Assembly: GCA_049303835.1 (NCBI GenBank) | Contig: JBAQNN010000002.1 | Span: 94,492-158,491 of the forward strand | Direction: 5' to 3' | Length of the DNA stretch: 64,000 nucleotides | Source of the DNA: Minisyncoccia bacterium | Lineage (GTDB): Bacteria > Patescibacteriota > Minisyncoccia > Phycocordibacterales > UBA9973 | Part shown: positions 2,985 through 61,491 of the stretch, in pieces | Numbering within the stretch: the first letter of the stretch is position 1 | Layout: each line of letters starts with the position of its first letter | Made by a program: the position numbers and the translations under genes | The notes under the pieces: generated by a model | Database searches by the model: none | What the model saw: only the letters and a program-made list of their open reading frames with translations | Told to the model about the DNA's origin: nothing

Positions 2985-3464
2985 TTAAATTTTTAGCATT
3001 CCAAAGAGTGCCACACCCAAGGCTACCGAGACATTTAGTGATTCCTTTTTTCCACGCATTGGAATCTCAGCAACAATATCGCACTTTTTTAAAATATTCT
3101 TTGGTATACCTGTCACTTCCGCCCCGACAATGAACGCGTTTCTATTTTGTAACTTTACTTTTTTGTAATCAATAGACTTTTTATCTTGTTCTATGCCAAT
3201 AATTAAATATTTTTCTTTCTTTAATTTAGTGAGTAATTGTAAAATATTTTTCTTCTGTTCCCATTTCACAAATTCTTCCGCCCCGAGCGCAGACTTTGCC
3301 AAGTCTCCTCTCTTCCTACCGAAACGATCCAGCGGCGTAGGCGTGTACCCCGTCAAATAAATCTTATCTATCCCCGCCGCATCCGCCGTGCGAAACATCG
3401 CTCCGACATTTTCCACACTTCGTATGTCATTTAATATTAAAATGTTTTTTTGATTCATAATCAT
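2985..3464 (-). CDS. SpoU/TrmH-family RNA 2'-O-methyltransferase
   Basis: 159 aa, NVGAMFRTADAAG and IPMRG..ESLNVSVA motifs of the SPOUT class. 4-nt overlap with uvrC. Confidence 0.8.
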   Translation of the reverse strand: MIMNQKNILILNDIRSVENVGAMFRTADAAGIDKIYLTGYTPTPLDRFGRKRGDLAKSALGAEEFVKWEQKKNILQLLTKLKKEKYLIIGIEQDKKSIDYKKVKLQNRNAFIVGAEVTGIPKNILKKCDIVAEIPMRGKKESLNVSVALGVALFGMLKI

Positions 3465-4690
3465 TTTAGAAAGTTTCTATTCCTCATATTTTTATGATAA
3501 GCGATAGCAAAGCGGTGAGATTCACTGTTTGCTAATAAAATTTCTTTTTTATATTTCAACCCAAACTCTCTATCCCCCATTATTGCTCTGGCTTTATGAT
3601 GTTCATCTTTTACAACTGAGACTACCGGGATATTTATTTTTAATTTATTTAAAATTTTTCTAGCAATATTTATTTGCGCCATACCGCCATCCACCACTAT
3701 CAAATTCGGGTAAGTCCATTCTGTGTGGGCAAGGCGTCTTTCCAATACTTCTTTCAAGGCTCCAGTATCGTTCGCATCAGTTTGCGTTCTAATTTTAAAT
3801 TTTTTATATTCATTTTTTACCACTTCCCCATCTTCCATCACCACCATGACCCCCACCATATTTTTGCCACCCATATGCGCAATATCATAAGCCTCTATAC
3901 GAGCTCCTGAAACAAGAAAATTTTTATTCGTGTGGGCCCCGCCCGGTACTCCGGGAAGGGAGGAACGAGAAAAATTTTCTTGTTTCAGGAGTGCCACATC
4001 GTTTATGTGCTTCAGTGCAAACATTTGTCTCTTTATTTCCCCCGCTTTCTCAAATTCCTGCTTTTTAGCATACTCTTGCATTTCTTTTTTAAGATTTTTA
4101 AAAATTCTTTTCTTTTTACCCTCAAAAAACAAAATAATATTTTTTATATTTTGTTTATATAATTTTTTATCGTTCAAATCAGGAACCAGGTTTATCTGTT
4201 TATAAAATTCCAAATAGTTCTTGCTTTTCTCGTCCAAAAATGGAAAAATCCTTCGTACTATTTTTAAAGCTTCTCTGAGTTGGGAGCCATTCGGGTAAGG
4301 TCCAAAAACGTTCTTTTCATTTTTTAAATTTTTTCCTCTAACAATAATTACTTTTGGAAGTTGTTCGTCTGTGACACAAACATAATTAAAACTTTTATCC
4401 GATTTTTCTTTAGTATTATACTTCGGCTGATGTTTTTTAATGAGTTTTGCTTCCAGAATAAGCGCTTCCAAGACACTGTCTGTGATCTGCCATTTTATTT
4501 TATCCGCCTTAAAAACCATATCCACTAAGATGGGTCCCCTCGTCTGTATCAAGTCTTTCCCAAAATAACTTCTCACCCTATCTTTAAGCGACGTAGCTTT
4601 GCCAATGTAAATGATTTTCCCTTTTTCTAAGAAAAAATAGACACCGGAATTATCAGGTATTTTAAATTTTTTTAGATTTTTACTATTCAT
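3461..4690 (-). CDS. uvrC: excinuclease ABC subunit C (short form, no C-terminal HhH)
   Basis: 409 aa, GIY-YIG (GVYFF...IYIGKA), UVR domain (EFEKAGEIKRQ), then the IEAYDIAHMGG endonuclease region. Confidence 0.85.
   Translation of the reverse strand: MNSKNLKKFKIPDNSGVYFFLEKGKIIYIGKATSLKDRVRSYFGKDLIQTRGPILVDMVFKADKIKWQITDSVLEALILEAKLIKKHQPKYNTKEKSDKSFNYVCVTDEQLPKVIIVRGKNLKNEKNVFGPYPNGSQLREALKIVRRIFPFLDEKSKNYLEFYKQINLVPDLNDKKLYKQNIKNIILFFEGKKKRIFKNLKKEMQEYAKKQEFEKAGEIKRQMFALKHINDVALLKQENFSRSSLPGVPGGAHTNKNFLVSGARIEAYDIAHMGGKNMVGVMVVMEDGEVVKNEYKKFKIRTQTDANDTGALKEVLERRLAHTEWTYPNLIVVDGGMAQINIARKILNKLKINIPVVSVVKDEHHKARAIMGDREFGLKYKKEILLANSESHRFAIAYHKNMRNRNFLK
3904..3991. repeat. in-frame hairpin insertion inside uvrC (22-bp perfect stem, GC-rich core)
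   Basis: 3904-3925 CTCCTGAAACAAGAAAATTTTT is the exact reverse complement of 3970-3991. The core contains CCCGG-TACT-CCGGG. Confidence 0.7.
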
Positions 4691-4691
4691 A

Positions 4692-7358
4692 TTATCTTCT
4701 TAAAACTTTTTTAAGGTATTTACCTGTATGAGATTTGCTATTATTGGCGACTTCTTCCGGAGTTCCTTTGGCTACAATATTTCCTCCTTTCACTCCACCC
4801 TCAGGTCCAATATCTATAATGTAATCTGAGCTTTTAATAATATCAAGGTTGTGTTCTATGAGAACAACGGTATTGCCTTTGGAAACCAGTTTATTTAAAA
4901 CTTCTAAAAGCTTTTGTACGTCATCATAATGAAGCCCGACTGTCGGCTCATCTAAAAGGTAAATAGTTTTTTCTAAATGCGGACGATAAAGTTCGCTTGA
5001 GATTTTTACCCTCTGTGCTTCCCCTCCGGATAGCGTCGTCGCTGGTTGTCCAATCTCAAGATATCCTAGACCCACATCCATCAAAGTCTGTAGCCTGTCA
5101 GAAACTGCTGGAATATCTTTAAAAAATTCCAATCCTTTTTCCACCGTCATACGAAGCACTTCATAAATATTTTTCTTCTTATATTTTACAGTAAGAGTTT
5201 CTTTATCAAAACGCTTTCCTCCACACACATCACAAGTCACATAAACCGTCGGCAAAAAATGCATCTCTACGGCAATTTCTCCATTACCCTCACAAGCTTC
5301 ACAACGTCCGCCCTTCACATTGAAAGAAAAACGGTTTGCTTTCCAGCCTCGCAATCGTGCTTCTTCTGTAGAAGCGAAAAGATCTCGAATATGCGTAAAA
5401 GCACCAGTATAAGTGGCTATATTTGATCTAGGAGTCCTGCCTATTGGTGACTGATCAATCAATATCGCGCGAGAAAGATACTCCGTACCAGAAAATGAAG
5501 AACAGTTAGATACCTGCGCTGTGCGATATTTTCTTTCATAACGCGCCTGTAAATTTTTATAAAGAATTTCATACATAAAAGAACTTTTACCAGAACCAGA
5601 AACTCCAGTGATGGATGTCATCACTCCGAGGGGCACTTCCACATTCATGTTGTTTATATTAAAAATTTTTCCCCCACTTACCCTAAGCGCACCCTTGGCT
5701 TGTCGTCTTTTTTCCGGAACTTCTATTTTTATTTCTTCCCGTAAATAAGCGAGAGTTCTAGAATTATTTACATTCTTTTTGGCAGTTAATAAATCCTCTA
5801 AATAACCGGAAGCTATCACCTCTCCACCGTGCACTCCTGCCTTAGGTCCGATATCCACAATATAATCAGAAGCATAGATAGTGTCTTCATCATGTTCCAC
5901 GATCAAAATTGTATTCCCTAAATCACGAAGATTTTGAAGAGTTTTAATTAATCTATCATTGTCTCGCTGGTGAAGACCTATCGTGGGTTCATCTAATACA
6001 TAAAGCGCACCGACCAACCTAGAACCAAGCTGGGAGGCCAGACGGATGCGTTGCGCTTCTCCCCCAGAGAGCGTGTTGGCCTTACGAGACAGTTGCAGAT
6101 AGTCCAAACCGACATCCAACATAAACTGGAGCCTAGCTTCTATCTCCCTCACCACCGGCACAGATATTTCTTTCTCTTGTGGGGAAAGTTTTAAATTCTT
6201 AAAGAAGTCATGCGCATCTTTAATGGAGAGCGAAGACAATTCCAAGATATTTATTTTTTTGTTTTTATCCGCTTCTAAAAATACATTGAGAGCTTCGGGA
6301 CGCAGTCTGGCACCATGACAAGTATCACACGGCTCATCTCCCATAAAATATTTTGAACCCAAACCATTACATTCCGGACAAGCCCCATAGGGAGAATTAA
6401 AAGAAAACAGCCTCGGCTCAACTTCCGGAAAAGAAAAGCCGTCATTTTTACAAGCAAATTTTGAGGACATAATAAATTCATTATCTCCGATCTTGATAGT
6501 AACCAGTCCGTCGGATTCAATAAGCGTTCGCTCTATCGCCTCGGATAAACGCATCCTACTTGCTTCTTTGTCATCAACAAACTCATGCACCGCAAAACTA
6601 TCTACTAGAATATCTATGTTGTGAGCTTTGTTTTTAGAGAGAGTAATTTGTTCTCGCAGTTTTTTCATCGCGCCATCCAAACGGATTTCGGCAAAACCTT
6701 TGCCAAGTAAATCATAAAGCATTTGGTAATATTCCCCTTTCCTCCCACGAACTACTGGTGAAAAAATACTAATTTCTGTTTCATCAAACTCCACCCCCAT
6801 CACTTTCCTCACATTCTTTTTTGGAGTTCGGGAAGAAGAATTTTGAACGGGAAAGGTTCCAGCCGGAGGCTGGAGTAATCCGGAAAAATTCTTCTTCCCG
6901 AACTCTCCCACTTTTTCCAAAACAAAATTCAAAATTTCTTCATTGGAAAGTTTTTTAATTTCCTCTCCACACAAAGGGCAATGCGGATGTCCGATGCGCG
7001 CATACATCACCCGCAAATAATCATAAATTTCTGTGATAGTAGCCACAGTGGAACGTGGGTTATTTGAACGAGATTTTTGGTCAATAGAAATTGCCGGTGA
7101 AAGACCGGTAATCTCATCCACATCTGGTTTCGGCATTTGATTTAAAAATTGTCGCGCGTAAGAAGACAGGGATTCCACATATCTCCTTTGCCCTTCCGCA
7201 AAGATAGTGTCAAAAGCCAAGGATGATTTTCCAGACCCGGAGACACCGGTAATAACCACCATCTTATTTCGTGGCATCTCCACGTTTATATTCTTTAAGT
7301 TATGGGTCCGCGCCCCCTTAACTACTATTTTATCTATATTTTTCTCTTGTTTTGTCAT
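4692..7358 (-). CDS. uvrA: excinuclease ABC subunit A
   Basis: Two ABC modules (GVSGSGKSS twice, LSGGEAQR twice) and zinc modules. I prefer the internal start [11 protein letters not shown] at 7358 over the track start at 7394. Confidence 0.9.
6824..6905. repeat. in-frame hairpin insertion inside uvrA (21-bp perfect stem, GC-rich core)
   Basis: 6824-6844 GAGTTCGGGAAGAAGAATTTT is the exact reverse complement of 6885-6905. Inner hairpin CCAGCC-GGA-GGCTGG at 6859-6873. Confidence 0.7.
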
Positions 7359-7438
7359 ATTTGTCCGCCCACTAGCGGATAACGCAATGCACACCCCGCT
7401 TTGTTCATAGGGGGTGTCTATCTCAATAATCTAACATA

Positions 7439-9577
7439 CTACTGTTTCTTTTCCAATTTCAACTTGAGTACTCCAATTTCATCCCTCAGTATCGCCGCTG
7501 TTTCAAAATCCAGCTCTTTCACCGCCTTATTCATTTCTTTCTCTTTGATTTTTATTATTTTTTCGTAAATTAGATCACCTATCTCTTCGTCCGAGAGATA
7601 CGATTGCCCTAGGCTAGTGTTTGGTATTCTACTTCTCGATTTTTCCTCTGTTTTTAATCTTTTTGAATAAGCTTTCTTAAAAATTTCCAGATCAAGACCG
7701 AGTTCTGTGTTAACCGTCTTGCCATGTTCGCTTTCCAATTCTTCCGTGATATCTTTTATCTTTTTCAAGATAGTCTTCGGGGTGATGCCATGTTTTTTAT
7801 TATAAGCAAGCTGAATATCTCTACGACGCTTCGTTTCATCAAGAGCGTATTTCATCGCTTTAGTAATGGAGTCGGCATAAAGAATGACTTTTCCTTCGCT
7901 GTTGCGGGCAGCACGACCAATGGTTTGAATCAGAGATGTCTCCGAACGTAAAAACCCTGCCTTGTCTGCATCTAAAATTCCTATTAATGCAACCTCGGGC
8001 AGGTCTAACCCTTCACGGAGAAGATTTACTCCCACCAAAACGTCAAATTCTCCTTTTCTAAATTGAGTCAGGATTTTAATCCTCTCTATGGTTTTTATAT
8101 CACTATGTAAATATTCTGCTTTTATTTTTTTACCCTCCTTGGCGGGTAAATCCTTCAAATAAAGAGAAAGGTCTTCCGCCATCTTTTTGGTAAGTGTCGT
8201 CGCTAAAACCCTGAAACCTTTTTTAATTGTTTTTTCTGTTTCTTCTATAAAATCTTGAATCTGACCTTTGTAGTCTCCTTTTTCATTTACGGGGCGCACT
8301 ACCGTCTCCGGATCTACCAGCCCCGTAGGGCGAATAATCTGCTCCACAATCTGTGTACTTTCTTTTCTCTCCACCTCACTCGGGGTGGCACTAGTGTAAA
8401 TCACCGAACCGATGCGTGCTTGAAATTCTTCATATCTAAGAGGCCTGTTGTCCTTGGCGGAAGGAAGCCGGAAGCCATATTCCACTAGAGTATTTTTACG
8501 AGAAGCATCCCCGGCGTACATACCGTTCAATTGAGGCAGAGTAACGTGCGATTCATCAATGATGGTAAGAAATCCGGTTTTAGGGAAATACGAAAGCAAC
8601 GTCTCCGGAGGCTCCCCTTCTTTCTTGCCGGACAAGTGTCTGGAATAATTTTCTATGCCATTACAATAGCCGACTTCTTTTATCATCGCCAGGTCGTAAT
8701 TTGTTCTTCTTTTGATTCTCTCCGCTTCTAAAAGCTTTTTTTCTTTCTCAAACTTTTTTAACTGGCTATTTAGTTCTTTTTTTATTTCCACTAAAGCTTT
8801 GTTTTTTTTGGTCTCTTCAGTAATAAAGTGTTTCGCGGGGAAAATAAACAAACTATCCTCTTCTTTTAAAATTCGCGAGGAGATTGGATCAACTTTTATT
8901 ATTTTTGAAATTTTTCCATTTTTAAACTCTATTTGATACATCGTGGTCTCGGACACGGGCATAAATTCCACTCGGGGGCCAACAGAACGAAAAGTCCCAG
9001 GGGTCAAATCCGCATTGGTTCGTTCAAAATGAATTTCAATCAATTTTTTCATCAAAACTAATCTGTCTAATTTCATTTCCAACTCTAATTTGAGATTTAC
9101 TTTTTCATATTCTTCTGGAGAACCCAATCCATAAATACAAGAGACCGATGCGACAATAATGACATCCGGCCTGGAGAGGAGAGCTTGCGTAGTAGCATGA
9201 CGCAGACGATCAATTTCTTTATTTATCTGCGCATCTTTTTCAATATACGTGTCCGTTGTCGGCATATAAGCTTCCGGCTGATAGTAGTCGTAATATGAAA
9301 CAAAATAATGCACCGCCGATTCCGGAAAGAATAATCTGAATTCTTGGGCAAGCTGGGCAGCCAGAGTCTTGTTGTGCGCTATTACCAATGTTGGTTTGTT
9401 GTACCCTGCTATGACATTTGCCATAGTAAAAGTCTTGCCCGTACCCGTTGCCCCGAGGAGGGTTTGTTTTTTCATCCCGCTCTCTAGCCCTTTCAATAAA
9501 GCAGAAATAGCCGCAGGTTGATCCCCTGCTGGTTTAAAAGGATTATGTAATTTAAAGACTGCCTTACTTTTCAACAT
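7439..9577 (-). CDS. uvrB: excinuclease ABC subunit B
   Basis: 712 aa, helicase motif I GATGTGKTF, DESH, C-terminal UVR domain (FETAAILRDEI). Confidence 0.95.
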   Translation of the reverse strand: MLKSKAVFKLHNPFKPAGDQPAAISALLKGLESGMKKQTLLGATGTGKTFTMANVIAGYNKPTLVIAHNKTLAAQLAQEFRLFFPESAVHYFVSYYDYYQPEAYMPTTDTYIEKDAQINKEIDRLRHATTQALLSRPDVIIVASVSCIYGLGSPEEYEKVNLKLELEMKLDRLVLMKKLIEIHFERTNADLTPGTFRSVGPRVEFMPVSETTMYQIEFKNGKISKIIKVDPISSRILKEEDSLFIFPAKHFITEETKKNKALVEIKKELNSQLKKFEKEKKLLEAERIKRRTNYDLAMIKEVGYCNGIENYSRHLSGKKEGEPPETLLSYFPKTGFLTIIDESHVTLPQLNGMYAGDASRKNTLVEYGFRLPSAKDNRPLRYEEFQARIGSVIYTSATPSEVERKESTQIVEQIIRPTGLVDPETVVRPVNEKGDYKGQIQDFIEETEKTIKKGFRVLATTLTKKMAEDLSLYLKDLPAKEGKKIKAEYLHSDIKTIERIKILTQFRKGEFDVLVGVNLLREGLDLPEVALIGILDADKAGFLRSETSLIQTIGRAARNSEGKVILYADSITKAMKYALDETKRRRDIQLAYNKKHGITPKTILKKIKDITEELESEHGKTVNTELGLDLEIFKKAYSKRLKTEEKSRSRIPNTSLGQSYLSDEEIGDLIYEKIIKIKEKEMNKAVKELDFETAAILRDEIGVLKLKLEKKQ

Positions 9578-11559: not shown

Positions 11560-14016
11560 CTACTTTACTTCTCCCAAATTTTTCCCTGAACCAGAGTGCA
11601 CCAGAAGAGGGACATCTGTTTTAAAATGAAGATATGACCGCAAGAGTACCCCCTCCATGGCTTCTTTGATTATTTTATCGGCTGTATCCAATACACCGTC
11701 TTCGGTCTCATATACTAATTCGTCGTGAATTTGTAAAATCAAATGAACCTTATCCAACATACCGGCGTTTTTTAGATCCTCTTCCGCATACCTTATGGCT
11801 AATTTAATAATATCAGCTGCTGTACCCTGTATCGGTGCGTTTGTGGCCGTTCGCTCAGCCATATTTTTTAAAAAAGGAATTCTGGAGTTAATGTTTGGGA
11901 AATAACGCCTACGACCAAATAGAGTTTCCGTATAAGAATGTTTTTCGGCAAAAACTTTTACTCCATTTAAATAGTCCCTCACTCCCCTAAACTGATGAAA
12001 ATAATTATCGTAAAATTTTTGAGCTTCTTCGCGAGTACCTCCCAGATTTTTACGCAAGGCCGAAACCCCCATGCCATAAATAATACCGAAGTTTATAACT
12101 TTTGCCTTCCGACGCATCTCGCTGTCCACTTTCTCTATCGGAACTCCGAAAACAAATGAAGCGACCCCGGCATGAATATCTTTTTTTTCTTTAAAAACTT
12201 GGGTCATCTTTTCGTCCAAAGAAAGCATCGCTGCGACCCGCAATTCAATCTGGCTATAATCAAAAGCAATAAGTTTGTGCCCTTTTTCTGCGATAAAACC
12301 ATCCCTGATTTTTTTCCCCAATTCTGTTTTTATTGGTAAATTTTGTAGATTTGGATCCTGAGATGAAAATCTGCCGGTGGTAGAGCCATTTTGAATAAAC
12401 TTAGCGTGTAGGCGACCATCATCACCCGCCATTTTAGGGATAACATCAATATAAGTGGAAAGTAATTTCTGTAATTCCCGGTAAGCCATTATTTCTTTTA
12501 TTATTTCATTCTCTTCTTCCAATTCTTCCAATACCGAAATCTTGGTAGAAAAACCTCCACTGGCATTTTTCTTTGCCTTGTTTTTACCTGGAGATTTTAT
12601 TCCTAATTTATTAAAAAGTATTTCTCCCAGTTGTTTGGGAGAATTGATATTGAATTCTGTTCCGGCCTGCTGGTATATTTTTTTTGTTAAAATATCCAAT
12701 TCTCTGTGATATTCTTCTGATAACTTTTCAAAATATTTTTTATCTATCAAGACCCCATGGTCCTCCATTTTTTTTACGATGGGTATAATCGGTTTTTCTA
12801 TTTCTTCATAAACTTTTTCAAGATTTTGTTCTTTTAATTTTTTGAAAATATGCTCATAGGCTGTTTCAAAAGATTCGGTATGCGCATAAAGTAAAATATC
12901 TTCCAGATTTGGATTAGAAATATCAGAATTGATAATCCATAAAGCAATACTAGCTTCTTGTAGTTTTTTTGAGTCCACAGAATCCTGGCGAGAGTGCTCG
13001 GAGGAATCTTCGCTACTGGCAGAAAAACCTTGCTCCTCCAGGACAGATTGCGAATGACGGAGAGCATCTTCGCCAGGATTCTGACTTTCAAAAAAGTTTC
13101 TTAAACGTCCAAGCAAACTTCTGAATTCAAATTGGGCGAAAACTTCTTCAATTTTTTTGAAATCAGCATTTTCCCAAAAAGTCTTCTCTGGCAAAGAGAA
13201 ATTTATTGGCGCATCTGTACGGATGGTCGCCAGTGTTTTTGAAAATAAAGCTTCTTCTTCGTTATTTTTTAATAGCTCAATCATCCTAGGACTAATGCCC
13301 ACTTTTTTAAATTGTAATTCGTAATTTGTACTTCGTAATTGCTTATAAATTTCTTCTATGGTGCCAAAATTTACAATCAAGTTTTCAGCCGTCTTTTCAC
13401 CTATACCTTTGATACCAATAATATTGTCAGATGGATCTCCTCGTAATCCCTTGTAGTCTGGTAAAAGCTTTGGTTTAAAACCAAAACGTTTCACTACCGC
13501 ATCCTCATCATATAAAATAGTATCGTTGATTCCCTTCTTTAGGGTATATATTTGAACTTTCTTATCATCCACCAACTGCATGGTGTCCATATCTCCGGAA
13601 GCAATAACAATATTCAGACTTCTGTCTTTTTTGTATTTCTCAACGATAGTTCCCAACACATCATCCGCCTCAAACCCGGGAGCATCGTAAATAGGAATAC
13701 TGAAAGCCTCAAAAATCTTCCGAGAGTTTTGTAATTGCACAATGAGTGCTTCGTCGGCTTTTACCCGACCGGCCTTATACGCATCATAAGCTTCGTGTCT
13801 AAAGGTCTTTTGTGGCAAATCATAGCAAGCGACGATATAGTCTGGCTTTAGCTCGGTAATTATTTTCATCAACATGCTGGAAAGTCCGTATAGTGCCCCG
13901 GTAGGTTCACCTTTTCCAGACAAAAATTCCGGCAAGGCGTGGTAAGCACGATGAATGATGGCATGAGCATCCAACAGGACCAATTTTTTATTTTTCTGTT
14001 CTTCTGTTTTAGGCAT
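11560..14016 (-). CDS. polA: DNA polymerase I
   Basis: 818 aa, 5' nuclease domain (LLDAHAIIHRAYHA), pol motifs DYSQIELRV, RRKAKVINFGIIYG, QIHDELV. Confidence 0.95.
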   Translation of the reverse strand: MPKTEEQKNKKLVLLDAHAIIHRAYHALPEFLSGKGEPTGALYGLSSMLMKIITELKPDYIVACYDLPQKTFRHEAYDAYKAGRVKADEALIVQLQNSRKIFEAFSIPIYDAPGFEADDVLGTIVEKYKKDRSLNIVIASGDMDTMQLVDDKKVQIYTLKKGINDTILYDEDAVVKRFGFKPKLLPDYKGLRGDPSDNIIGIKGIGEKTAENLIVNFGTIEEIYKQLRSTNYELQFKKVGISPRMIELLKNNEEEALFSKTLATIRTDAPINFSLPEKTFWENADFKKIEEVFAQFEFRSLLGRLRNFFESQNPGEDALRHSQSVLEEQGFSASSEDSSEHSRQDSVDSKKLQEASIALWIINSDISNPNLEDILLYAHTESFETAYEHIFKKLKEQNLEKVYEEIEKPIIPIVKKMEDHGVLIDKKYFEKLSEEYHRELDILTKKIYQQAGTEFNINSPKQLGEILFNKLGIKSPGKNKAKKNASGGFSTKISVLEELEEENEIIKEIMAYRELQKLLSTYIDVIPKMAGDDGRLHAKFIQNGSTTGRFSSQDPNLQNLPIKTELGKKIRDGFIAEKGHKLIAFDYSQIELRVAAMLSLDEKMTQVFKEKKDIHAGVASFVFGVPIEKVDSEMRRKAKVINFGIIYGMGVSALRKNLGGTREEAQKFYDNYFHQFRGVRDYLNGVKVFAEKHSYTETLFGRRRYFPNINSRIPFLKNMAERTATNAPIQGTAADIIKLAIRYAEEDLKNAGMLDKVHLILQIHDELVYETEDGVLDTADKIIKEAMEGVLLRSYLHFKTDVPLLVHSGSGKNLGEVK
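12978..13083. repeat. hairpin-forming GC-richer segment inside polA linker
   Basis: 12978-12991 CAGAATCCTGGCGA is the exact reverse complement of 13070-13083. Stem extends by TGCTC/GAGCA; inner GGAGGA (13000-13005) pairs with TCCTCC (13034-13039). Confidence 0.55.
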
Positions 14017-22875: not shown

Positions 22876-23973
22876 TTATCTATTCATTGGCATAATGAGA
22901 TAGGTAAAAGAAGAATCAGAGACCGGGGATACAACCATAGGACTTCCTGTGCCGGAGAGTTTTATAGAAACACTATCAGTGACAATTGACTGAAAACAGT
23001 CCAAAAAGTATTTATAGTTGAAAGAAAGTTCTATGTTTTCACCGTTTATAACGGCATCTAAATAAGTTTTATTTTCTCCCACATCGTTGTTGGAAGATGA
23101 AAACTCTAAAATCTTTTCTTTTGGAATAATCTTTAAATTAACTTGATTAAACTTGTCTGAAAAGATATTAGACAACTTTAAGGCATTCAATAAATCTTGT
23201 TTGAGAACCACTACCTCCGTAGTTGTGTTTTTGGGAATAATTTGACGATAATCTGGAAAAATACCGTCAATTATTCGTGAAGTTAAGTAAATGTTATCAG
23301 AAGAAAGTGAAATTTGATTTTTATTAAAACAAACCTTTAGGACCCCCTGAAATTCCCCAAAAACCTTCAAAATTTCAGCTATGTTTTTATAAGGAACAAG
23401 AATACCTGAAATTTCCTCAACCCCCTTCGCTTTTACCTTTTTTTCGGCCAACCTAAAAGAATCTGTTGAAACAAAAACCAAATTATCTCCGTTGGTATAT
23501 ATAAAAACACTTGAAATTTCTGGCTTTATATCGGAAACAGAGGAGCTATAATAAACTGATTTAATTCCCTCAATAAGTTTTTTTGATTCTATTTCAAAAC
23601 TTGTTCCCGTCACAGTGGGAATGGTTGGAAAATCTTCGTGAGGCTGACATTTTAATCTTATTTGACTTTTTTTTGTTTTAATTAAAAGATTTTCATCCTT
23701 TTTTTCCAACTGAACATTTTCATTTTGAGAAACGTTGGAAAAAATAGCGTTTAGCACCGAACCTGAGATAGCCAAAGTTCCTTCTTTTTCTATTTTAGCT
23801 GAAATTTCAACTTCAATACCCAAGTTTAAGTTGGTGGATCTCATTTTTAATGATTTACCCGAAGCAATCAATAAAATTGAGCTTAAAACGGGAAGGGTTA
23901 GATTTTTGCCGGTAATTCTCTCTACTTGAGATATTCCATTTTTGAGTTTTTCAACCGAACATTCTATTTTCAT
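22876..23973 (-). CDS. dnaN: DNA polymerase III beta sliding clamp
   Basis: 365 aa, three-domain clamp pattern, MKIECSVEKL..., position next to dnaA. Confidence 0.9.
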   Translation of the reverse strand: MKIECSVEKLKNGISQVERITGKNLTLPVLSSILLIASGKSLKMRSTNLNLGIEVEISAKIEKEGTLAISGSVLNAIFSNVSQNENVQLEKKDENLLIKTKKSQIRLKCQPHEDFPTIPTVTGTSFEIESKKLIEGIKSVYYSSSVSDIKPEISSVFIYTNGDNLVFVSTDSFRLAEKKVKAKGVEEISGILVPYKNIAEILKVFGEFQGVLKVCFNKNQISLSSDNIYLTSRIIDGIFPDYRQIIPKNTTTEVVVLKQDLLNALKLSNIFSDKFNQVNLKIIPKEKILEFSSSNNDVGENKTYLDAVINGENIELSFNYKYFLDCFQSIVTDSVSIKLSGTGSPMVVSPVSDSSFTYLIMPMNR

Positions 23974-24212
23974 ATATTTGTTTATATCTTATATAAATAA
24001 ATTATTAGTAATATTAGTGTTGTTAATAAGTGGATAATTATTTTTATATTTATTAAATATACTTATTTTTAATTTATAAACTGAACTTAAATCTAATAAC
24101 TTTTTGTCTTATGTTTATGAAAATATTTTTTATTTTTAATTTTTCTTTTTATTCGCGTTAATTAACAGATTTTGTCTGGTTTGTTATATTGTTTTTCCCT
24201 ACTTATAAACAG
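23974..24212. other. candidate oriC / DNA unwinding region (very AT-rich dnaA-dnaN spacer)
   Basis: 239-bp spacer, by eye >80% AT with A/T tracts. One near-consensus DnaA box at 24029-24037 (TTATCCACT on the minus strand). Confidence 0.5.
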
Positions 24213-25556
24213 CTATTTAAACATAATTCTTATTTGTTCCAACTCTTGCAGCAACGAAGAATCATTTTTTAAGTCAGTTTTTATTTTTAAACAAGAGTGG
24301 ATGACTGTCGTGTGATCCTTTCCCCCCAATTTTTGTCCAATTAGCGGATAAGATACATTAAAGTCTTCTCGGAGTAGATACATGACTACTTGTCTTGCTC
24401 TGACTATTTCCTTTTTTCTTGTTTTCTCATAAATTGAAGATTCTTCCAATTTATAATATTCACTCACTATCTTTACTACATCCTTTATGGCCATGTTTTT
24501 CTTTGGTCTAAGGTTGTTTTTGAGTAGATTTTTTACCTCTACAAGCGTCAATGGTTTGTTTTTTAGTTTATATTGGCAAACAATAAGGTTAAGACTTCCT
24601 TCCAGCTCCCTGATGTTTCCCTGAACTGCCCCCGCCACGTAATCTATCACCTCCTCAGCCAAATCAACATTTAATTCACGGAGTTTAACCTTTAAAATAG
24701 CCAGACGTGACTCATATTCAGGCTCAGATATGTCAACGATCATACCAGCAGCAAAACGAGACTTTAGTCTATCCGCCAGCTCTGGAATGTAGTTTGGGTG
24801 TTTGTCTGAAGAAAAGATAATCTGTTTGTTGTTTTCATAAAAAGTGTTAAATGTGTGAAAAAGTTCTTCTTGAATTTTTTCCATTTTTCCAATGAATTGG
24901 ATATCGTCTATTATTAACAGGTCGTATTTACGATATTTTTCTTTAAAAGAATTTGCTTTGTTGTTTTGGAGTGAATTTACAAAATCTGTGGCAAATTTTT
25001 CCAAGGTCATATAGTGTACCTTTTTATTTGGATATTTTTCTTTTATTGAGTTTCCCACCGCCTGAATCAAGTGTGTTTTTCCTAGTCCAGTACCTCCATA
25101 AATAAAAAATGGGTTATATTTTGTTCCAGGAGAGTCTATTATTGCCTGGGCTGCAGCATAAGCGAGCTCATTGAAAGTTCCGACGATAAACGAATTGAAT
25201 TGATAGCGTGGATTTAGGTTGTCTTCCAGATTTATGTATAAATCTTTTAGGGGTAGTTCTTTTTCTATGGTTATTTCATTTATTGGCGCTGGTTCTTGTT
25301 TTACATTTTCTGTTTTAACAATAGTATATTCTACGGCACGCATATTTTCATAGGCATCGGCAATGGTTTTGGTTATCAATTTGTGATATTTATTGATAAG
25401 CCAGTCGCGGACGAACTCGTTTGGCACCCCAATATAAACAATACCGGTATCTTCTTTTATGATGGATGTGTTTTTAAACCAGGTACTAAAATTTGCTTTT
25501 GATATACCAGATTCTATTTCCATTAGACAACTTTTCCACAACTCTTTTGTATTCAT
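24213..25556 (-). CDS. dnaA: chromosomal replication initiator DnaA
   Basis: 447 aa, AAA+ Walker A GGTGLGKTH, Walker B LLIIDDIQF, C-terminal DNA-binding HTH (GGKDHTTVIH). Confidence 0.95.
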   Translation of the reverse strand: MNTKELWKSCLMEIESGISKANFSTWFKNTSIIKEDTGIVYIGVPNEFVRDWLINKYHKLITKTIADAYENMRAVEYTIVKTENVKQEPAPINEITIEKELPLKDLYINLEDNLNPRYQFNSFIVGTFNELAYAAAQAIIDSPGTKYNPFFIYGGTGLGKTHLIQAVGNSIKEKYPNKKVHYMTLEKFATDFVNSLQNNKANSFKEKYRKYDLLIIDDIQFIGKMEKIQEELFHTFNTFYENNKQIIFSSDKHPNYIPELADRLKSRFAAGMIVDISEPEYESRLAILKVKLRELNVDLAEEVIDYVAGAVQGNIRELEGSLNLIVCQYKLKNKPLTLVEVKNLLKNNLRPKKNMAIKDVVKIVSEYYKLEESSIYEKTRKKEIVRARQVVMYLLREDFNVSYPLIGQKLGGKDHTTVIHSCLKIKTDLKNDSSLLQELEQIRIMFK

Positions 25557-27164: not shown

Positions 27165-27650
27165 ATGGATAAAAACGAGATACAAAAATTAATAACAGAA
27201 TTGATTGAAAAAACTACAGTGAAATTAAATGATGTTTCTGTGGTAGAAGACGGGCCCAAAAACATCTGGGTTGCAGTAGAGGTGAGTGAACCACACTTCT
27301 TTATTTCACACGACGGTGAAGGTTTGCAAGCCCTAAACCATATTGTTCATAGAATTATTGAAGCTAAAAACCCTTCCCCCGCACCTGGTTTAGGAGAAAA
27401 AGCAGGGCTGGGAATCCTGGTGGATGTAAATGGTTTTCAAAAAAAGCACGTGGAGAATGTCCGAGCCATAGCTCATATGATGTCTGAGAGAGCGAGATAT
27501 TTTAAATCAAACATAGAAGTTGATCCGATGTCAGCCTTTGAGCGTAGAATTGTACACGAATTTTTATCCGATGCGCCTGATCTCAAAACCGAATCCATGG
27601 GTATGGGGCGTGATCGCCGAGTAGTTATCAAATATATCGGCTCTATTTAA
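27165..27650 (+). CDS. jag: Jag/SpoIIIJ-associated RNA-binding protein (KH + R3H)
   Basis: 161 aa, C-terminal R3H (ERRIVHEFL), position after yidC. Confidence 0.75.
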   Translation: MDKNEIQKLITELIEKTTVKLNDVSVVEDGPKNIWVAVEVSEPHFFISHDGEGLQALNHIVHRIIEAKNPSPAPGLGEKAGLGILVDVNGFQKKHVENVRAIAHMMSERARYFKSNIEVDPMSAFERRIVHEFLSDAPDLKTESMGMGRDRRVVIKYIGSI

Positions 27651-29007
27651 GTTCCAATTCCCAAAGGAAAGAGTCTTTTTTGTTTACAAAAAATAGATAA
27701 TTTTCCTCTGTATCAAGCGCGAGTTTTATGCTATCTGTCTCCTCTCCTCCTTCCACAGTGGTTGGGTCTAAAAGAAGAGTCGCATTTCCGGTAGTTAAAT
27801 CTATTTTCCAGAATTGATCTCCGAAAGATACTTCTCCACGATACCAAATATCCGGATATCCCGCTCCGGTAATTACTTTAGGAACTCCACAGTAGATGAC
27901 ATCGCTCACACTTCCCCAGACACATTTTTCCGGTAAAGTCCTTACCCCAAGAACTTCTGATGTCTTTGTGTCTGTATGGTAGATACCGAGAGCTAGGTTG
28001 TTGTTTCCATAAAGAATAGATTTTCCATCTGGACTAGTGAGGGTGGTCAATCCATTTATATTGCCGAAAATTTGGTGCAAGTTTTTATTATTTATTGGGT
28101 CCACGCCATATACAAATCCGGGGACAGAAGCGGCAGGTTTTGTGGTTAAAGTCATGAGTTTGTTGTTTGGCCACTCGGGCAACCACTCGGTGAATGGTGA
28201 ATCAAAGATTTGAGATTTTTTGTTGGTGGTCAGGTTTAAAGTTGTACCCACAATATTTTCTCCGACCTCAAACAGATAAAGAATACTTCCTTTGTCTCCC
28301 GACAGGCTCACATCCCTTATGTCTTCTGGCAAGAATGTTCCAGTTATTTCATTTTCTCCTGTAGTGTCTCCCCCCAAGACTTCTTTTGGCAAATTACCGA
28401 CAAAAGTAATGATGATGTTTCCATCTTCTTTTAAATATCTCATTATCACAGACTCTCCTTTGTTGCCAAAGAATGCTTCATATACTTTAGGAATCATTGT
28501 TCCGGAAAACTTCCTTTCTTCTATTTTATCCGCGAAAGTCTGATAGATGTTTCCTGTAGCTCTATCCACATACCTTAGAGCCGACACGAATTCTGTCGCC
28601 GGTGGGGTTGGTTTTGTGGTGGTCGTTGTTTTTGGAGTTGTTTCTTCCGGGGTGGTGGTATTTTCAGCAGGAGGAGTTGTCGGCGCTACCACAGGAGGAA
28701 TTTCTACTAGTCTTTCTTTAGTATAAACAGTAAAACCAGCCACGGGCATACTGGAGACCTTTTTAAGTTTTACTTCTTCCTGCTCGGGTCCTGGCTCGTA
28801 ACCGGAGACATCAGTAGGAGTGTCTCCTTTGGGCGTCGTCGGTGATTTGCCTCCCGTTCCAAATGGATTGAATTGTGAGATAAAGTTTGTCCCCTCTCCT
28901 TCTTCTCCTAGTGTCCCCGTGCCTTGTTGTAAATATAAAAATCCAAACACTACCAGGATAGTGATGATCAGAATTATTATTAAAAGTATAAAATTTCTTT
29001 TTGACAT
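27643..29007 (-). CDS. membrane-anchored protein with Thr/Pro linker and PD40/TolB-like beta-propeller repeats (last gene of T4SS-like operon)
   Basis: 454 aa, N-terminal TM helix, TTPPAENTTTPEETTPKTTTTTKPTPP linker, SPDGKSILY-type repeat. Confidence 0.5.
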   Translation of the reverse strand: MSKRNFILLIIILIITILVVFGFLYLQQGTGTLGEEGEGTNFISQFNPFGTGGKSPTTPKGDTPTDVSGYEPGPEQEEVKLKKVSSMPVAGFTVYTKERLVEIPPVVAPTTPPAENTTTPEETTPKTTTTTKPTPPATEFVSALRYVDRATGNIYQTFADKIEERKFSGTMIPKVYEAFFGNKGESVIMRYLKEDGNIIITFVGNLPKEVLGGDTTGENEITGTFLPEDIRDVSLSGDKGSILYLFEVGENIVGTTLNLTTNKKSQIFDSPFTEWLPEWPNNKLMTLTTKPAASVPGFVYGVDPINNKNLHQIFGNINGLTTLTSPDGKSILYGNNNLALGIYHTDTKTSEVLGVRTLPEKCVWGSVSDVIYCGVPKVITGAGYPDIWYRGEVSFGDQFWKIDLTTGNATLLLDPTTVEGGEETDSIKLALDTEENYLFFVNKKDSFLWELELK

Positions 29008-29016
29008 ATGTTTTTA

Positions 29017-29994
29017 TTATCTGCCATCCACTGACCAATGCCAAGGTTCGGATGGTAAGTTAGAAAGACCGTATTTACCGGCATTTGCTTGTAGCCACAC
29101 AAAGCACTTATTATCGCGGGTTTGAATAAATTTTCCATCACACTGTAGATCAAATGCCTTGCCATGGTTGTGATTTGATTGACCTGGAAGAGCTGTGGGT
29201 GGATTACATTTTGCACTTGCGTTTTCGTAGTCTCCATTACAATATTTTATTCTTAATTGTTTCTGTTGTTCTGTAGATCTATATCCCCCACCTGTTATGT
29301 TTAATCCGGCACTTTTTGATGCAACTAGCATGGCGTTAATGTTTGAAACAATATCTTTACATGCAAACATGCTAATTTGGGTTTTTACCACTCCGGCGCT
29401 ACATCCAGATGTAACTCCTGGGGGGTTCCCAGAATCGCTTGCTATTGCGTCTGCTAGTGTTACCTCTACTGTTATTTTTTCTAAACTACTCAGATCAGTC
29501 TTTAGAATATCTGGATTTATTTGGTTTAAGATTGTCCAAGCGCCCAAAGCGAGCACAAGTCCAAAAATAGCGCCAGTGATTCTATGTTTACCGTTTTCTT
29601 TATTAGATATCAGTTCACTAGTCATATACTCCAAACCACCCACCACTATCATTATCACAGCCAACACAGCGCATATACCGATGAAAATACGTATCATTAT
29701 GTTCAAATACTCACCTATTTTGGAATTTTCTCCCTCTGCGCTTGTCGGGTCAAAGGTTTTTAGTTGTCCATCTTCACACCCAGGAGTACCTTTTTCACAA
29801 GGCAGAGGGGCTAAAAAATTATATTTCAAATCATTTTCTTGTGTAGCATTTACGCAGGACACCCCATCAGGAGCAAGTATTTTATCTCCTGTGCATTCAA
29901 CTGCCAAAACAGAGTTGGTGGAGACAAAAAAACTAAAGATTAAAAAAACCAATTGTAATGAGACTATTATCTTTTTAAGCATATCTTTTTTCAT
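29017..29994 (-). CDS. fusion protein: VirB2/TrbC-like T4SS pilin domain + C-terminal M15 (VanY-like) peptidoglycan peptidase
   Basis: 325 aa: signal peptide, YNFLAPLPC motif, two hydrophobic helices (IRIFIGICAVLAVIMIVVGG, ITGAIFGLVLALGAWTILNQI), then GYRSTEQQ...SNHNHGKAFDL...EPWHWS. Confidence 0.6.
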   Translation of the reverse strand: MKKDMLKKIIVSLQLVFLIFSFFVSTNSVLAVECTGDKILAPDGVSCVNATQENDLKYNFLAPLPCEKGTPGCEDGQLKTFDPTSAEGENSKIGEYLNIMIRIFIGICAVLAVIMIVVGGLEYMTSELISNKENGKHRITGAIFGLVLALGAWTILNQINPDILKTDLSSLEKITVEVTLADAIASDSGNPPGVTSGCSAGVVKTQISMFACKDIVSNINAMLVASKSAGLNITGGGYRSTEQQKQLRIKYCNGDYENASAKCNPPTALPGQSNHNHGKAFDLQCDGKFIQTRDNKCFVWLQANAGKYGLSNLPSEPWHWSVDGR

Positions 29995-31012: not shown

Positions 31013-31047
31013 AACTTTATAACTTTCAACTTTTGAACTTTATAACT
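31013..31047. repeat. five degenerate 7-8-nt direct repeats AACTTTNN (AAAGTT in mRNA sense)
   Basis: acAACTTTatAACTTTcAACTTTtgAACTTTatAACTa directly after the virB4 stop. Followed in mRNA sense by TGATATAAT. Confidence 0.6.
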
Positions 31048-32893
31048 ATTGTTTACCCTCAGTTTCCGCTCTCTCCTGCTCCTCCTTGGCTTTTCTGTTT
31101 GAAAGTATTTGGGAAGGGTCGGAAGTGATTATCTGGTCTTCAGTATAAGAAGAAATGACTTTTATGGCTACATGCTTTAGGCCGGCAAAGAATATTCCCT
31201 CCCCGAGGCCTGACTCCAAAAGCAGATATTTTTCTTCATCCGTCAGGTTGAAGGTTTTTTGTAAAATATCTATAGTGGTCGGTGATTGTTTAAGGAGAAG
31301 TTGAATAGAAGAGTTTGTAATGATGGGGACACCATAAGGAGATTTCATAAAGTCGGCGGCGTCTTGGGTGATGGTGGAAAGACCGAGATAATATTTTCTA
31401 CCTCTTTTGGCGATAGAGTATAAGAATGAAGCGGTGTCTTCAGATTTCATCATCCACCAAGCCTCATCTACTACCAAGAGGCGCTTTTTCAAATTTTTTC
31501 GTACGGTATTCCAGATATAATGCATGATGATATACATGGCGACGGGTTTTAACTCGTCTTCCATGTCGCGGACGGAAAATACTACGAATTTTTTATTGAT
31601 ATCCACATTGGACGGTCTGTTTAAGAATGTCGCCCAAGAACCCCTCGTATATTTGGCTAGTCTGGTGACGATTGAATCACTTCCATCCATCCCTCCGAGC
31701 ACCATTTCAAAATCTGACAGAAGAGGAGGTTCAATGTTTGAGAAATCAGATTCAGGAGTGATATCTTTCATCGCATAAGTTTCGGAAATAGCTCGGTCTA
31801 CCATTGAATCTTCTTCAGGGGTGAGTCCGCCTAGCATCAATCTGAAAAGCCCTACCAAGTTTATGATATTTGAACGGAGGACATCTTCGGCTGTTTCGCC
31901 TTCGTGAGGAATAGGTAAATCAAAAGGATTGATGTGGTGATCGGAAGAAAGAGAAATATTGAAATATCTTCCACCGACCGCCTCTGACAAGAACTCGTAT
32001 TCCCTTTCCGGATCTATCACTATGACATCAACATCAAACATTAAAGATCTCAAAATTTCTAGCTTAGTGGCATACGATTTTCCGGAGCCGGACTTGGCAA
32101 AGGTCACGGAGTTGTAATTCTCTAGTGAAAATCTATCAAAGATGACTAGGCTGGAATTGTGCCTGTTGATGCCGTAAAGTATTCCTTTGTTGGAAGTCAG
32201 GTCAAAAGAAATAAATGGGAATACACTACTAAGTGGTTCAGAATTCAACTTCTGATGAATACCAAGTATGTCTGTATTTATGGGTATGACGCTCTTAAAA
32301 CCGTCTTCTTGTTGGAAGAGAGCCGGTTTGATATAGATGAGTTTTGATTCAAGGATTGATTTTATCTCATTTTCTATTTTGAAAAGTTCCAACTCGTTGT
32401 CGGCATAAATGGTGATGTAAATACCCACATCAAACATTTTTTCTTGCGCTTGGATCAGATTATTGCGCAGGCCCTCTAGGTCTTGGTAGGCAGTATCAAG
32501 CATAGGGTCGCGCACCATACCCTTACTCTCTCGTACACTTATCTGACTCTGCACCTCGGCGACTTTTTTCTGAAATTGTCTCAAGACCAGAGAAGTGTCT
32601 ATCGGATGAATAAAAATTGAAATATCAAAAACTTTATCCAGATTGATTATAGGAGAGAACCAATTGTCTGTCAGAAATCTAGGATAGGAAATGATGAAAA
32701 AAGTACGAGCGATTTTATCTCCCAAGCTTATGGATTTAGACGATATTTTCAGAGCTGAAGGAGCGATGACATCTTGGAGCTCCAGGGTGGCGGATTGGTA
32801 GATTTCTTCCGGCATCACTGCCAAGACGGAAGCTCTCACTTCCTTTTCCTCCCCTCCTTTTTGTCCACCTAATAATTTTTTTAAAAAGTCCAT
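31046..32893 (-). CDS. virB4: VirB4/TraE-type T4SS ATPase, C-terminal 3/4 (split gene, part 2)
   Basis: 615 aa, Walker A AKSGSGKSY, Walker B LLVVDEAWWMM, ITQDAADF. The N-terminus matches the DxIAPS...yP region that sits at about aa 215 of single-chain Gram-positive VirB4 homologues. Confidence 0.85.
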   Translation of the reverse strand: MDFLKKLLGGQKGGEEKEVRASVLAVMPEEIYQSATLELQDVIAPSALKISSKSISLGDKIARTFFIISYPRFLTDNWFSPIINLDKVFDISIFIHPIDTSLVLRQFQKKVAEVQSQISVRESKGMVRDPMLDTAYQDLEGLRNNLIQAQEKMFDVGIYITIYADNELELFKIENEIKSILESKLIYIKPALFQQEDGFKSVIPINTDILGIHQKLNSEPLSSVFPFISFDLTSNKGILYGINRHNSSLVIFDRFSLENYNSVTFAKSGSGKSYATKLEILRSLMFDVDVIVIDPEREYEFLSEAVGGRYFNISLSSDHHINPFDLPIPHEGETAEDVLRSNIINLVGLFRLMLGGLTPEEDSMVDRAISETYAMKDITPESDFSNIEPPLLSDFEMVLGGMDGSDSIVTRLAKYTRGSWATFLNRPSNVDINKKFVVFSVRDMEDELKPVAMYIIMHYIWNTVRKNLKKRLLVVDEAWWMMKSEDTASFLYSIAKRGRKYYLGLSTITQDAADFMKSPYGVPIITNSSIQLLLKQSPTTIDILQKTFNLTDEEKYLLLESGLGEGIFFAGLKHVAIKVISSYTEDQIITSDPSQILSNRKAKEEQERAETEGKQ

Positions 32894-33614: not shown

Positions 33615-33623
33615 AAATTTTTT

Positions 33624-33700
33624 CTAGGGCTTTAGGCTCTAGGCGTTAGGCTTTAGCTTTTGTTTCGCTAGAGCCTAGTGCCTAAGGCCTAGCTGCCTGC
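33624..33700. repeat. heptad hairpin element copy B
   Basis: CTAGGGC TTTAGGC TCTAGGC GTTAGGC TTTAGC / ttttgtttc / GCTAGA GCCTAGT GCCTAAG GCCTAGC TGCCTGC. The last 12 nt supply the end of the prgI-like ORF. Confidence 0.8.
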
Positions 33701-59118: not shown

Positions 59119-59302
59119 TTTTGAAAACTTTTTGCTTTTTTGTCCCAAAATGCTAAGATAAATCCGAAGTCGTGAGTCTTTTAAAAAGTTTATCAGTTAA
59201 CTAACAAGTTCGTCTTTAGATAGAGATAGTGTCTCACTTTTTTGTGAAACAGTACTTTATTCTGAAGATGAGCCCTGCTCGCTTAGGCGGGTAAACCCAT
59301 AA

Positions 59303-61438: not shown

Positions 61439-61491
61439 AAATTTAACTGACGGGAGTAGTGGTAAAAATTAGCATATTAATTTCTAACGGG

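Follow-up and report, generated by a model that had tools for sequence, protein, structure and literature searches.

What has placed a long, perfect palindrome inside the coding sequence of a conserved repair gene, and how has the reading frame been kept open? The question is raised by the uvrA gene in a stretch of 64,000 nucleotides from a Minisyncoccia bacterium (contig JBAQNN010000002.1; the whole stretch is called the window here). The uvrA hairpin belongs to a dispersed family of palindromic insertions, many copies of which are found in genes of Nomurabacteria and Paceibacterota, bacteria of the candidate phyla radiation. It is probably a non-autonomous element that keeps the frame of its host gene and consists of a conserved unit bounded by AATT and of a complementary stem that is specific to each copy; judging from the sequence, translation of the insert is most likely, and UvrA would tolerate it without making any use of it.

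The two arms of the hairpin, GAGTTCGGGAAGAAGAATTTT at 6824-6844 and AAAATTCTTCTTCCCGAACTC at 6885-6905, are complementary at 21/21 positions and lie 40 nt apart, as a first-pass annotation of the window had described, and the GC-rich motif CCAGCC-GGA-GGCTGG that it had pointed out in the spacer is found at 6859-6873, where it forms, within the core signature (Table 1), an apical mini-hairpin that reads CCAGCC-TCC-GGCTGG on the coding strand. The uvrA frame runs through the hairpin without a stop. In 100 dinucleotide-preserving shuffles of the whole window, the longest perfect inverted repeat with a span of up to 200 nt averaged 12.3 nt and never exceeded 15, against 22 nt (uvrC) and 21 nt (uvrA) in the real window. 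The RNA of the coding strand is predicted to fold with -47.5 kcal/mol (z = -6.6; none of 200 shuffles was as stable), and a scan in sliding segments of 110 nt ranked the hairpins of uvrC and uvrA as the two most stable structures of the 64 kb, above tRNAs and terminators. A chance origin of the palindrome is thus excluded.

Comparison with other uvrA genes identifies it as an insertion. A scan at one genome per species yielded 80 orthologous uvrA loci (labelled with L-numbers below; 67-92% identity), all from metagenome-assembled genomes of Candidatus Nomurabacteria, Paceibacterota or Patescibacteria. The distance between the conserved motifs KLSNEEI and GRKGEYYQ is 207 nt in the window and 132-147 nt in most of these loci, and empty-site orthologues read ...EKINTLSK-NSKKNKKVMGVEW... 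(also given as ...EKINTLSK-NSKKNKKVMGVEWDETEI...). The solved UvrA structures 9gxk, 3zqj, 3pih and 2r6f align on both sides of the site and skip 34 residues of the window's protein. The insert, which adds about 23 residues that most orthologues and all solved structures are without, is located in the loop that is preceded by the helix behind the zinc module's first CxxC and followed by the UvrB-binding domain's first strand. The first-pass annotation was correct in placing the repeat in frame and in a part of UvrA that varies, and the outcome that would have spoken against an insertion, no length difference to close orthologues, did not occur, since most orthologues and the solved structures lack the segment. 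Relative to an ancestral linker of 138 nt, the net gain is 69 nt for elements of type A, to which the window's uvrA copy belongs, and 75 nt for type B, in either case 18 nt, or about one arm, more than the unit itself (51 or 57 nt). The nearest relatives, L071 and L001, carry an insert of the same kind; L023, L007, L002 and L026 carry a related insert with another core, and further loci have unrelated inserts at the same place.

The family was traced with a covariance model (R1) that was built from 14 copies (alignment A1) and, in parallel, with an nhmmer profile. In the window and the 80 loci (1.46 Mb), these searches revealed about 40 distinct related hairpins in uvrA, uvrC, polA and other genes. 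Each of them lies within an open reading frame (ORF) of 217 codons or more, and 38 of 40 are in the sense orientation of the gene. Within the window, only the uvrC and uvrA hairpins match R1, which bears out the likeness of their stem motifs that had been noticed earlier; the uvrC hairpin is a sister type, and the hairpins in pcrA and polA are members of other families. A metagenome scan with the type A core pattern TTACTCC..CC...GG..GGAACC gave at least 120 matching stretches, of which at least 73 non-redundant copies remained when a flanking stem was required. Their hosts, according to Pfam, include Dus, FAD-linked oxidase and LigA (the latter two at several sites), the CCA-adding enzyme, PheT, MnmA, PurH, LeuRS and TGT, in addition to UvrA and the uvrC gene of L001; one 52-nt unit is common to copies in at least 11 different genes. 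Neither of the two core patterns had a match in 2.9 million viral contigs, and a search with a 42-residue concatenate of the insert peptide returned no candidates.

What the copies share was determined from the information-content profile of 70 type A copies aligned on their core, from the spacing of AATT and from a census of AATT-bounded hairpins. High information content is confined to the 52 nt from AATTYTT to ARAATTYT, and the profile falls to near zero outside this unit; AATT and about 3 nt are all that is conserved at and beyond its ends. AATT is found at a fixed distance on both sides in 65/73 copies. Non-orthologous copies have a pairwise identity of 0.815 in the units and of 0.376 in the arms, for which 0.391 is expected from composition. 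The flanks beyond AATT are nevertheless paired within each copy (88-97% Watson-Crick for 12 nt, declining to chance level by about 20 nt), and they are inverted complements rather than direct repeats. The resulting stems comprise 14-28 bp (median 21; 22/73 are perfect), 8-22 bp of which lie beyond the unit, and the complete elements are 70-96 nt long. The only part of the stem that is conserved across the family is the short AAGAAR-AATT run, i.e. the motif to which the first-pass annotation had drawn attention. Its suggestion of shared termini holds insofar as the uvrA and uvrC copies are both bounded by AATT after an AAGAAR-type run. That the outer two thirds of the stem are copy-specific had been overlooked, as had the conservation of the AATT-bounded core. 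The supposed link to the pcrA copy is not upheld: that hairpin has a different core, its A/T run is at the outer instead of the inner end of the stem, and it does not match R1. Since the 12-mer AAGAARAATTTT occurs 22 times with one mismatch, versus 10.5 times expected by chance, little weight can be given to an A/T-rich purine run by itself. It should be noted that AATT is self-complementary, so a duplication of these 4 bp would be indistinguishable; a loose K-K-N codon repeat flanks some of the uvrA copies.

The census of 2.26 Mb recovered 91 AATT-bounded hairpins, compared with 1 in the shuffled control. Measured between the AATT starts, the unit spans 48 nt in 59 copies (type A), 54 nt in 11 (type B, including the uvrC copy of the window), 42 nt in six, 45 nt in two, 75 nt in two and 66 nt in one, while lengths of 33, 39, 40, 43, 53, 55, 65, 71 and 76 nt account together for the remaining 10. 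The length is a multiple of three in 83/91 cases.

The elements are also uniform in their reading frame. Among the 73 type A copies, 52 are read in the sense orientation in one phase, giving the peptide ..KN[SF]SxLL[HQ]P[SA][GA]GTF[RP]xQN[SF].., and 15 in the antisense orientation, again in one phase, giving ..KN[SF]xGGRF[RHQ]PxxGVMxKN[FS]... Four copies are in no long ORF (two of them are at contig ends), and two appear in another phase, with stops a few codons upstream, and are probably just outside genes. In all 67 clearly intragenic copies, the AAT of both boundaries is an Asn codon, and 77 AATT-bounded hairpins, counted across all types, are read in this way too. In this frame, the first codon position of one arm pairs with the first codon position of the other ('phase 1'). 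The unit is free of stops in the used frame in either orientation, and the ORF is intact in every filled orthologous copy. The bias towards one frame may result from the phase-1 constraint, from selection that acts on the peptide or from Lys-Asn codons being preferred as targets.

The pairing of the arms has the signature of DNA rather than of RNA. Paired cells make up 95.5% of the alignment A1, versus 73% with shuffled partners and 39-57% when one side is slid by 1-3 columns; 84 cells are changed on both sides, versus 23 in the shuffles, and only four are G-U. Watson-Crick pairs occupy 1441 of the 1520 stem positions of type A (94.8%), and A.C mismatches are more frequent than G.U on the mRNA strand (39 versus 17). 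A selected RNA helix would tolerate G-U, and thus its scarcity argues against an RNA function, which is disfavoured also because the elements occur in both orientations and in unrelated host genes. On the plus strand of the element, A.C mismatches exceed G.T significantly (46 versus 11), and 15 of the A.C are at a single position next to AATT; as this position is family-specific, the asymmetry was dropped as a pointer to the active strand.

Comparison of orthologous sites has revealed how the copies change. The loci L161 and L134 share a site in the FAD-linked oxidase gene, with flanks that are about 90% identical and with the common stem AGATCAAAAACAGGAR-AATT, and the unit has been inverted in place: when one of the two is reverse-complemented, L161 (...DQKQENSLTLLQPSAGTFRQQNSPVFDL...) and L134 (...DQKQENSTDGRFRPKAGVMSKNFPVFDL...) are identical at 49/52 positions. 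Beside AATT there is a mismatched pair, A.C in one and G.T in the other, that has been inverted along with the unit, so the break points must lie within the stem. In-place inversion accounts for the equivalent frames of sense and antisense copies. Restriction and ligation at ^AATT was considered as a source of both inversion and unit exchange, and it was rejected for inversion, as this mismatch just outside AATT has been inverted as well. The inversion of a spacer is an expected outcome of template switching or recombination between inverted repeats (PMC8604942).

In addition, different units occupy one and the same stem in close relatives: TTCGGGAAGAAGAATT / AATTCTTCTTCCCGAA is common to the uvrA genes of the window (unit A) and of L002 (unit B), which implies either unit exchange or repeated insertion. 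On a neighbour-joining tree of UvrA, the clade of the window has unit A in the window itself, L071 and L001, unit B in L002 and L023, a type C of short length in L004 and a GGAGG-rich insert in L003 and L006, while the site of L005 is empty. The GGAGG-rich insert contains several hairpins, encodes KEGVGGGNSKK..PPxKGGE and is present also in L044; L003 is the closest relative (sister) of the window in this tree.

The stems themselves change in a concerted manner. In orthologous uvrC copies, one arm reads AAGAAA in the window, AGGAAA in L006 and AAGAGA in L002, and the other arm has changed to match; the opposite arm has TTCG in L006 and GGAG in the window, whose stem has become 4 bp longer by a clustered substitution that turned F into G. 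The outer 9 nt (CTCCTGAAA) of one uvrC arm of the window are the codons of the conserved L-L-K in HINDVALLK. Likewise, the arm at 6891-6905 in uvrA consists at least in part of host linker codons (the orthologues have x-[L/F]-[G/S/E]-K there), and the arm at 6824-6838 has no counterpart in empty-site orthologues. Taken together, the pairing pattern, the inversion and the exchange of units point to template switching at the DNA level rather than to an RNA function.

How could such an element arise and persist? One arm would be copied from the other at the DNA level during replication or repair, by template switching or fold-back synthesis, which would make the arms complementary and keep them so. 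The same process would extend the stem into host codons, repair mismatches and flip the unit, and it may perhaps also exchange units between copies. Template switching is documented to make perfect stems, multi-base 'compensatory' repairs, repeat extensions and spacer inversions (PMC8794818, PMC8604942, PMC13100816). The fixed frame would reflect the least constraining way of coding a palindrome, with position 1 opposite position 1, and/or insertion into Lys-Asn codons; for mitochondrial genes of nematomorphs, it has been shown that 'phase 1' coding palindromes constrain the protein least (PMC6649704). The element would be a selfish cassette that preserves the frame and is translated as a harmless loop, and coding palindromes in essential genes have been argued to be hard to lose, imprecise deletion being lethal (PMC6649704).

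Several observations weigh against this explanation. No insertion event has been caught: a protein database search with UvrA residues 101-300 for near-identical filled and empty alleles gave nothing closer than 90%, and no near-identical pair that differs solely by the element was found. Translation of the insert is suggested by the preservation of the frame, and the 52:15 bias for the sense orientation is confounded with the direction of replication, because the host genes are on the G-rich strand in 57/62 cases. The origin of the outer stem is inconsistent, with host codons in a uvrC arm and a gain of the unit plus about one arm in uvrA. Fold-back synthesis predicts that the length of the arm beyond AATT is a multiple of three, which the remainder counts of 23, 27 and 13 do not support. 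In the uvrC gene of L047 (L047:13705-13744), a perfect 40-nt palindrome around a single AATT (ETKQKHKNFYVSAL) contains no unit at all and seems to have been inserted as a whole, its nearest relatives being without it. Finally, a transposase that acts in trans is conceivable, the DNA examined being 64 kb plus fragments. The solo stem of L047 resembles the stem of an element with a 42-nt unit in the uvrA gene of the same genome (L047:10808). Insertion of units into pre-existing AATT-centred palindromes was also considered and discarded, as empty palindromes are barely enriched (2 versus 0 at 9/10 matches, 32 versus 13 at 8/10) and the one clear solo stem, that of L047, is itself an insertion.

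A transposase in trans is central to one alternative, namely that the elements are ordinary MITEs (miniature transposable elements with inverted repeats at their ends) that insert at AATT and duplicate it, and that the in-frame copies are the survivors of selection. The dispersal of the family, the conservation of both its ends around AATT, many subfamilies (42, 45, 48, 54, 66 and 75 nt) with common AATT boundaries and the existence of a few intergenic copies fit this explanation. However, the flanks beyond AATT should then be unrelated to one another or direct repeats, and not inverted complements specific to each copy; the in-place inversion breaks in the stem and not at AATT; Pfam found no transposase, RAYT or nuclease among the 25 ORFs of the window that were scanned, and the core patterns are absent from the viral contigs. 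In addition, intergenic copies amount to only about 5-8%, and a far higher share would be expected if the frame had purged two thirds of random insertions within genes. We therefore regard a transposase-mobilised MITE as unlikely. Another alternative, an artefact of assembly or amplification such as an inverted chimera (or a mere chance palindrome), had to be considered for a window that is probably metagenome-assembled, since hairpins can arise in this way, and it is refuted: no shuffle came near 21 nt, orthologous copies are present in independent assemblies from different studies (L001, L071, L023, L002 and L007; L168 and L086), and the ORF is intact in every case.

Two further alternatives assign a function to the insert in its host gene. 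The stability of the predicted hairpin, the similar hairpins in uvrC, polA and pcrA of the window and the strong covariation would all be expected if a structure in the uvrA mRNA had been selected, e.g. as a site for RNase III, as a pause in translation or as an element of stability, through which uvrC-uvrA-uvrB would be regulated. Yet unrelated genes carry the type A unit, in either orientation to the mRNA, it is absent from most orthologues and replaced by other inserts in sister lineages, and G-U pairs are nearly lacking, A.C being more frequent than G.U on the mRNA strand. The only matches to Rfam above the gathering score in the window are tRNAs, and in E-value mode the hairpin yields nothing other than miRNA-hairpin noise (10-26 bits, with thresholds of at least 59); a scan for promoters and terminators detected neither kind of site at the hairpin. 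A selected RNA structure is thus disfavoured and has a small residual probability, and the hairpin may have a side effect on mRNA decay or translation. Similarly, the position in a surface linker beside the UvrB-binding domain and the preserved frame in all filled orthologous copies would suit a lineage-specific functional loop of UvrA, in which the palindrome is incidental. This is disfavoured as well, and its probability is very small indeed: the same peptide recurs in the UvrC protein of L001 and in 10 or more unrelated enzymes, the antisense reading is used equally, sister lineages have other inserts or none, and conservation resides in the nucleotides and their pairing, not in the peptide.

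A bolder version of the preferred explanation of a selfish in-frame element, which we put forward tentatively and with rather more doubt than belief, is that the AATT cassettes are mobile DNA that needs no transposase of its own and spreads via host replication and repair, by template switching or fold-back synthesis at the hairpin. The stem would be built from neighbouring host codons, the arms would be kept identical, units would be flipped and swapped, and both orientations would be translatable in the phase that least constrains a coding palindrome. If this is true, such an element would be effectively undeletable inside the essential genes of streamlined genomes.

The closest known counterparts are the Rickettsia palindromic elements (RPE-1 to RPE-10; Ogata et al. 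2000, 2002). According to the summaries in PMC10969869 and PMC1779305, these are dispersed palindromes that lie in frame in unrelated housekeeping genes of a bacterium with a reduced genome, encode a conserved peptide, occupy sites compatible with the protein fold, have no known transposase and, like the present elements, include PheT among their hosts. The present elements likewise form a dispersed, hairpin-forming family in frame in unrelated genes, with a conserved peptide if they are translated as the frame suggests. However, the RPEs are described in these summaries as 100-150 bp long and limited to Rickettsiales, and they are reported to lose the identity of their repeats with time (PMC6649704), whereas here the whole element is 70-96 nt long with a 52-nt unit (42-75 nt across types) bounded by AATT, the copy-specific stem is about 95% Watson-Crick paired, the unit flips in place, different unit types occupy one stem, and the hosts are Nomurabacteria/Paceibacterota. 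Compared by description and not by sequence, the uvrA element would work like an RPE, and it is not classed as one.

The coding palindromes of Nematomorpha are similar in another respect (PMC6649704): they are long, perfect inverted repeats within translated genes, their arms extend over host codons, they are gained and lost between species, 'phase 1' is in excess, and homogenisation of the arms by template switching has been proposed for them. The uvrC arm over L-L-K, the 94.8% Watson-Crick pairing, the 22/73 perfect stems and phase 1 all agree with this type. The nematomorph repeats differ in that they consist of the gene's own sequence in a mitochondrial genome, with both arms encoding conserved protein and without a conserved inserted core or a sequence family, unlike the 52-nt unit that recurs in at least 11 genes. 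MITEs and REP/REPIN elements are also small, non-autonomous, dispersed and hairpin-forming; in MITEs the terminal inverted repeats are conserved and the target duplications direct, and REPs are extragenic and tied to RAYT genes (reviewed in PMC10969869). In the present family, the arms are unconserved, their identity being at the level of composition, no direct duplication is seen, about 92-95% of the copies are in genes (67/73 type A copies are in ORFs), the type A consensus has no GTAG foot, and no RAYT is encoded by the scanned ORFs of the window. The in-frame double-hairpin elements of Allomyces may resemble the present elements, and mobile GC-rich hairpin elements of organelle genomes share the combination of GC-rich cores with an AT-rich, compact genome and are sometimes found in genes. 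Examples are the GC clusters of yeast mitochondria (PMC4478555) and repetitive hairpin-forming and double-hairpin elements (PMC2800124), the mechanism of whose mobility is unknown. The organelle elements differ in that they are mostly intergenic and have neither a fixed reading phase nor a target-specific outer stem. Short structured inserts within coding sequences are moreover found in translational bypass, as in T4 gene 60. The byps of Magnusiomyces mitochondria, as cited in PMC6649704, are inserts of this kind. Bypass, however, does not require preservation of the frame and involves stops or take-off and landing codons, and the 83/91 unit lengths that are multiples of three, together with the stop-free copies in ORFs, argue for plain translation and not for bypass.

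None of the papers searched was found to describe in-frame palindromic elements for Parcubacteria, Patescibacteria or the candidate phyla radiation. Selfish palindromes in frame in essential genes have been a Rickettsia curiosity for 25 years, with an unknown mechanism of mobility. Nomurabacteria and Paceibacterota have reduced genomes and are probably host-dependent, and an abundant counterpart in them that comprises several families suggests that such elements recur in reduced, gene-dense genomes. With at least 120 stretches for one core pattern, the mechanism may become tractable, the clues being the AATT bounds, unit lengths in multiples of three, a single phase, copy-specific complementary stems that extend into host codons, inversion in place and the exchange of units. 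The elements enlarge and diversify the linkers of conserved proteins (UvrA, UvrC, PolA, LigA and aminoacyl-tRNA synthetases), create false 'variable regions' in phylogenomic alignments, and put perfect 20-bp hairpins into repair genes, both in their mRNAs and in their DNA during replication. Use of the elements as strain markers is conceivable.

Table 1. Position of the uvrA hairpin, its parts and its uvrC counterpart in the window.
Feature	Position	Strand	Remarks
uvrA ORF	4692..7394	minus	900 codons from GTG; contains the hairpin and is intact across it; Pfam UvrA_inter, ABC_tran
Whole hairpin element, 82 nt	6824..6905	minus	21-bp perfect stem and 40-nt interior; E164 to about T190 of the ORF
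Type A unit, AATT at both ends	6839..6890	minus	AATT at 6839-6842 and 6887-6890; distance between starts 48 nt (divisible by 3)
Core signature TTACTCCAGCCTCCGGCTGGAACC (coding strand)	6855..6878	minus	From the metagenome scan pattern and fold prediction
Outer arm, 5' on the coding strand, GAGTTCGGGAAGAAG	6891..6905	minus	Copy-specific; encodes E F G K K
Outer arm, 3' on the coding strand, CTTCTTCCCGAACTC	6824..6838	minus	Falls within N-S-S-S-R-T; inverts the sequence of the other arm exactly
Sister type B element in uvrC	3904..3991	minus	Unit AATT..AATT at 3919-3976, AATT starts 54 nt apart; in frame

The uvrA gene, whose probable start is the Met of MTKQEKN, lies between uvrC (3461-4690) and uvrB (7439-9577). 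The uvrC element has a 22-bp perfect stem and a unit that is read as QENFSRSSLPGVPGGAHTNKNF; its site, between HINDVALLK and RIEAYDIAHM, is a second hotspot of insertion, with several element types and many empty orthologues. The polA gene (minus strand) has a 22-nt inverted repeat of 86% identity at 12978-13083, in frame in the linker after FEFRSLLGRLRNFF (ALRHSQSVLEEQGFSASSEDSSEH), of a family that is different from that in uvrA and common to L064, L006, L051 and L021; other relatives have type B, type C or 'EFSRVLGSPG' elements in this linker. In pcrA, also on the minus strand, an imperfect in-frame hairpin of about 110 nt at 45650-45759 with its own GC-rich core adds about 35 residues (ENLLEWGLSQADEPRGSAPRARGDSDPRREVFSAP) without a counterpart in the solved PcrA structures 1pjr and 1qhh.

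Outside genes, a perfect 15-nt inverted repeat that is bounded by AATT is located at 61429-61493, just after the PNPase gene (59303-61438); its stem CCCGTTAGAAATT...AATTTCTAACGGG recurs at L047:9948 and L110:1943, and it thus represents a conserved non-coding hairpin. The sliding fold scan showed strong structure also in the intergenic segments 33601-33710 and 59201-59310 (residual z about -4.9 and -4.6). The genes dnaN and dnaA lie at 22876-25556 beside an AT-rich stretch (GC 0.32), and the cumulative GC skew, which largely tracks gene orientation in the window, has its minimum near 48-50 kb. Large ORFs of 454-999 residues without a Pfam match (27643-29007, 35128-38127, 38177-40564 and 46342-48669) adjoin genes that resemble those of type IV secretion, namely a TraG-like gene (31046-32893) and a pilin/VanY gene (29017-29994).

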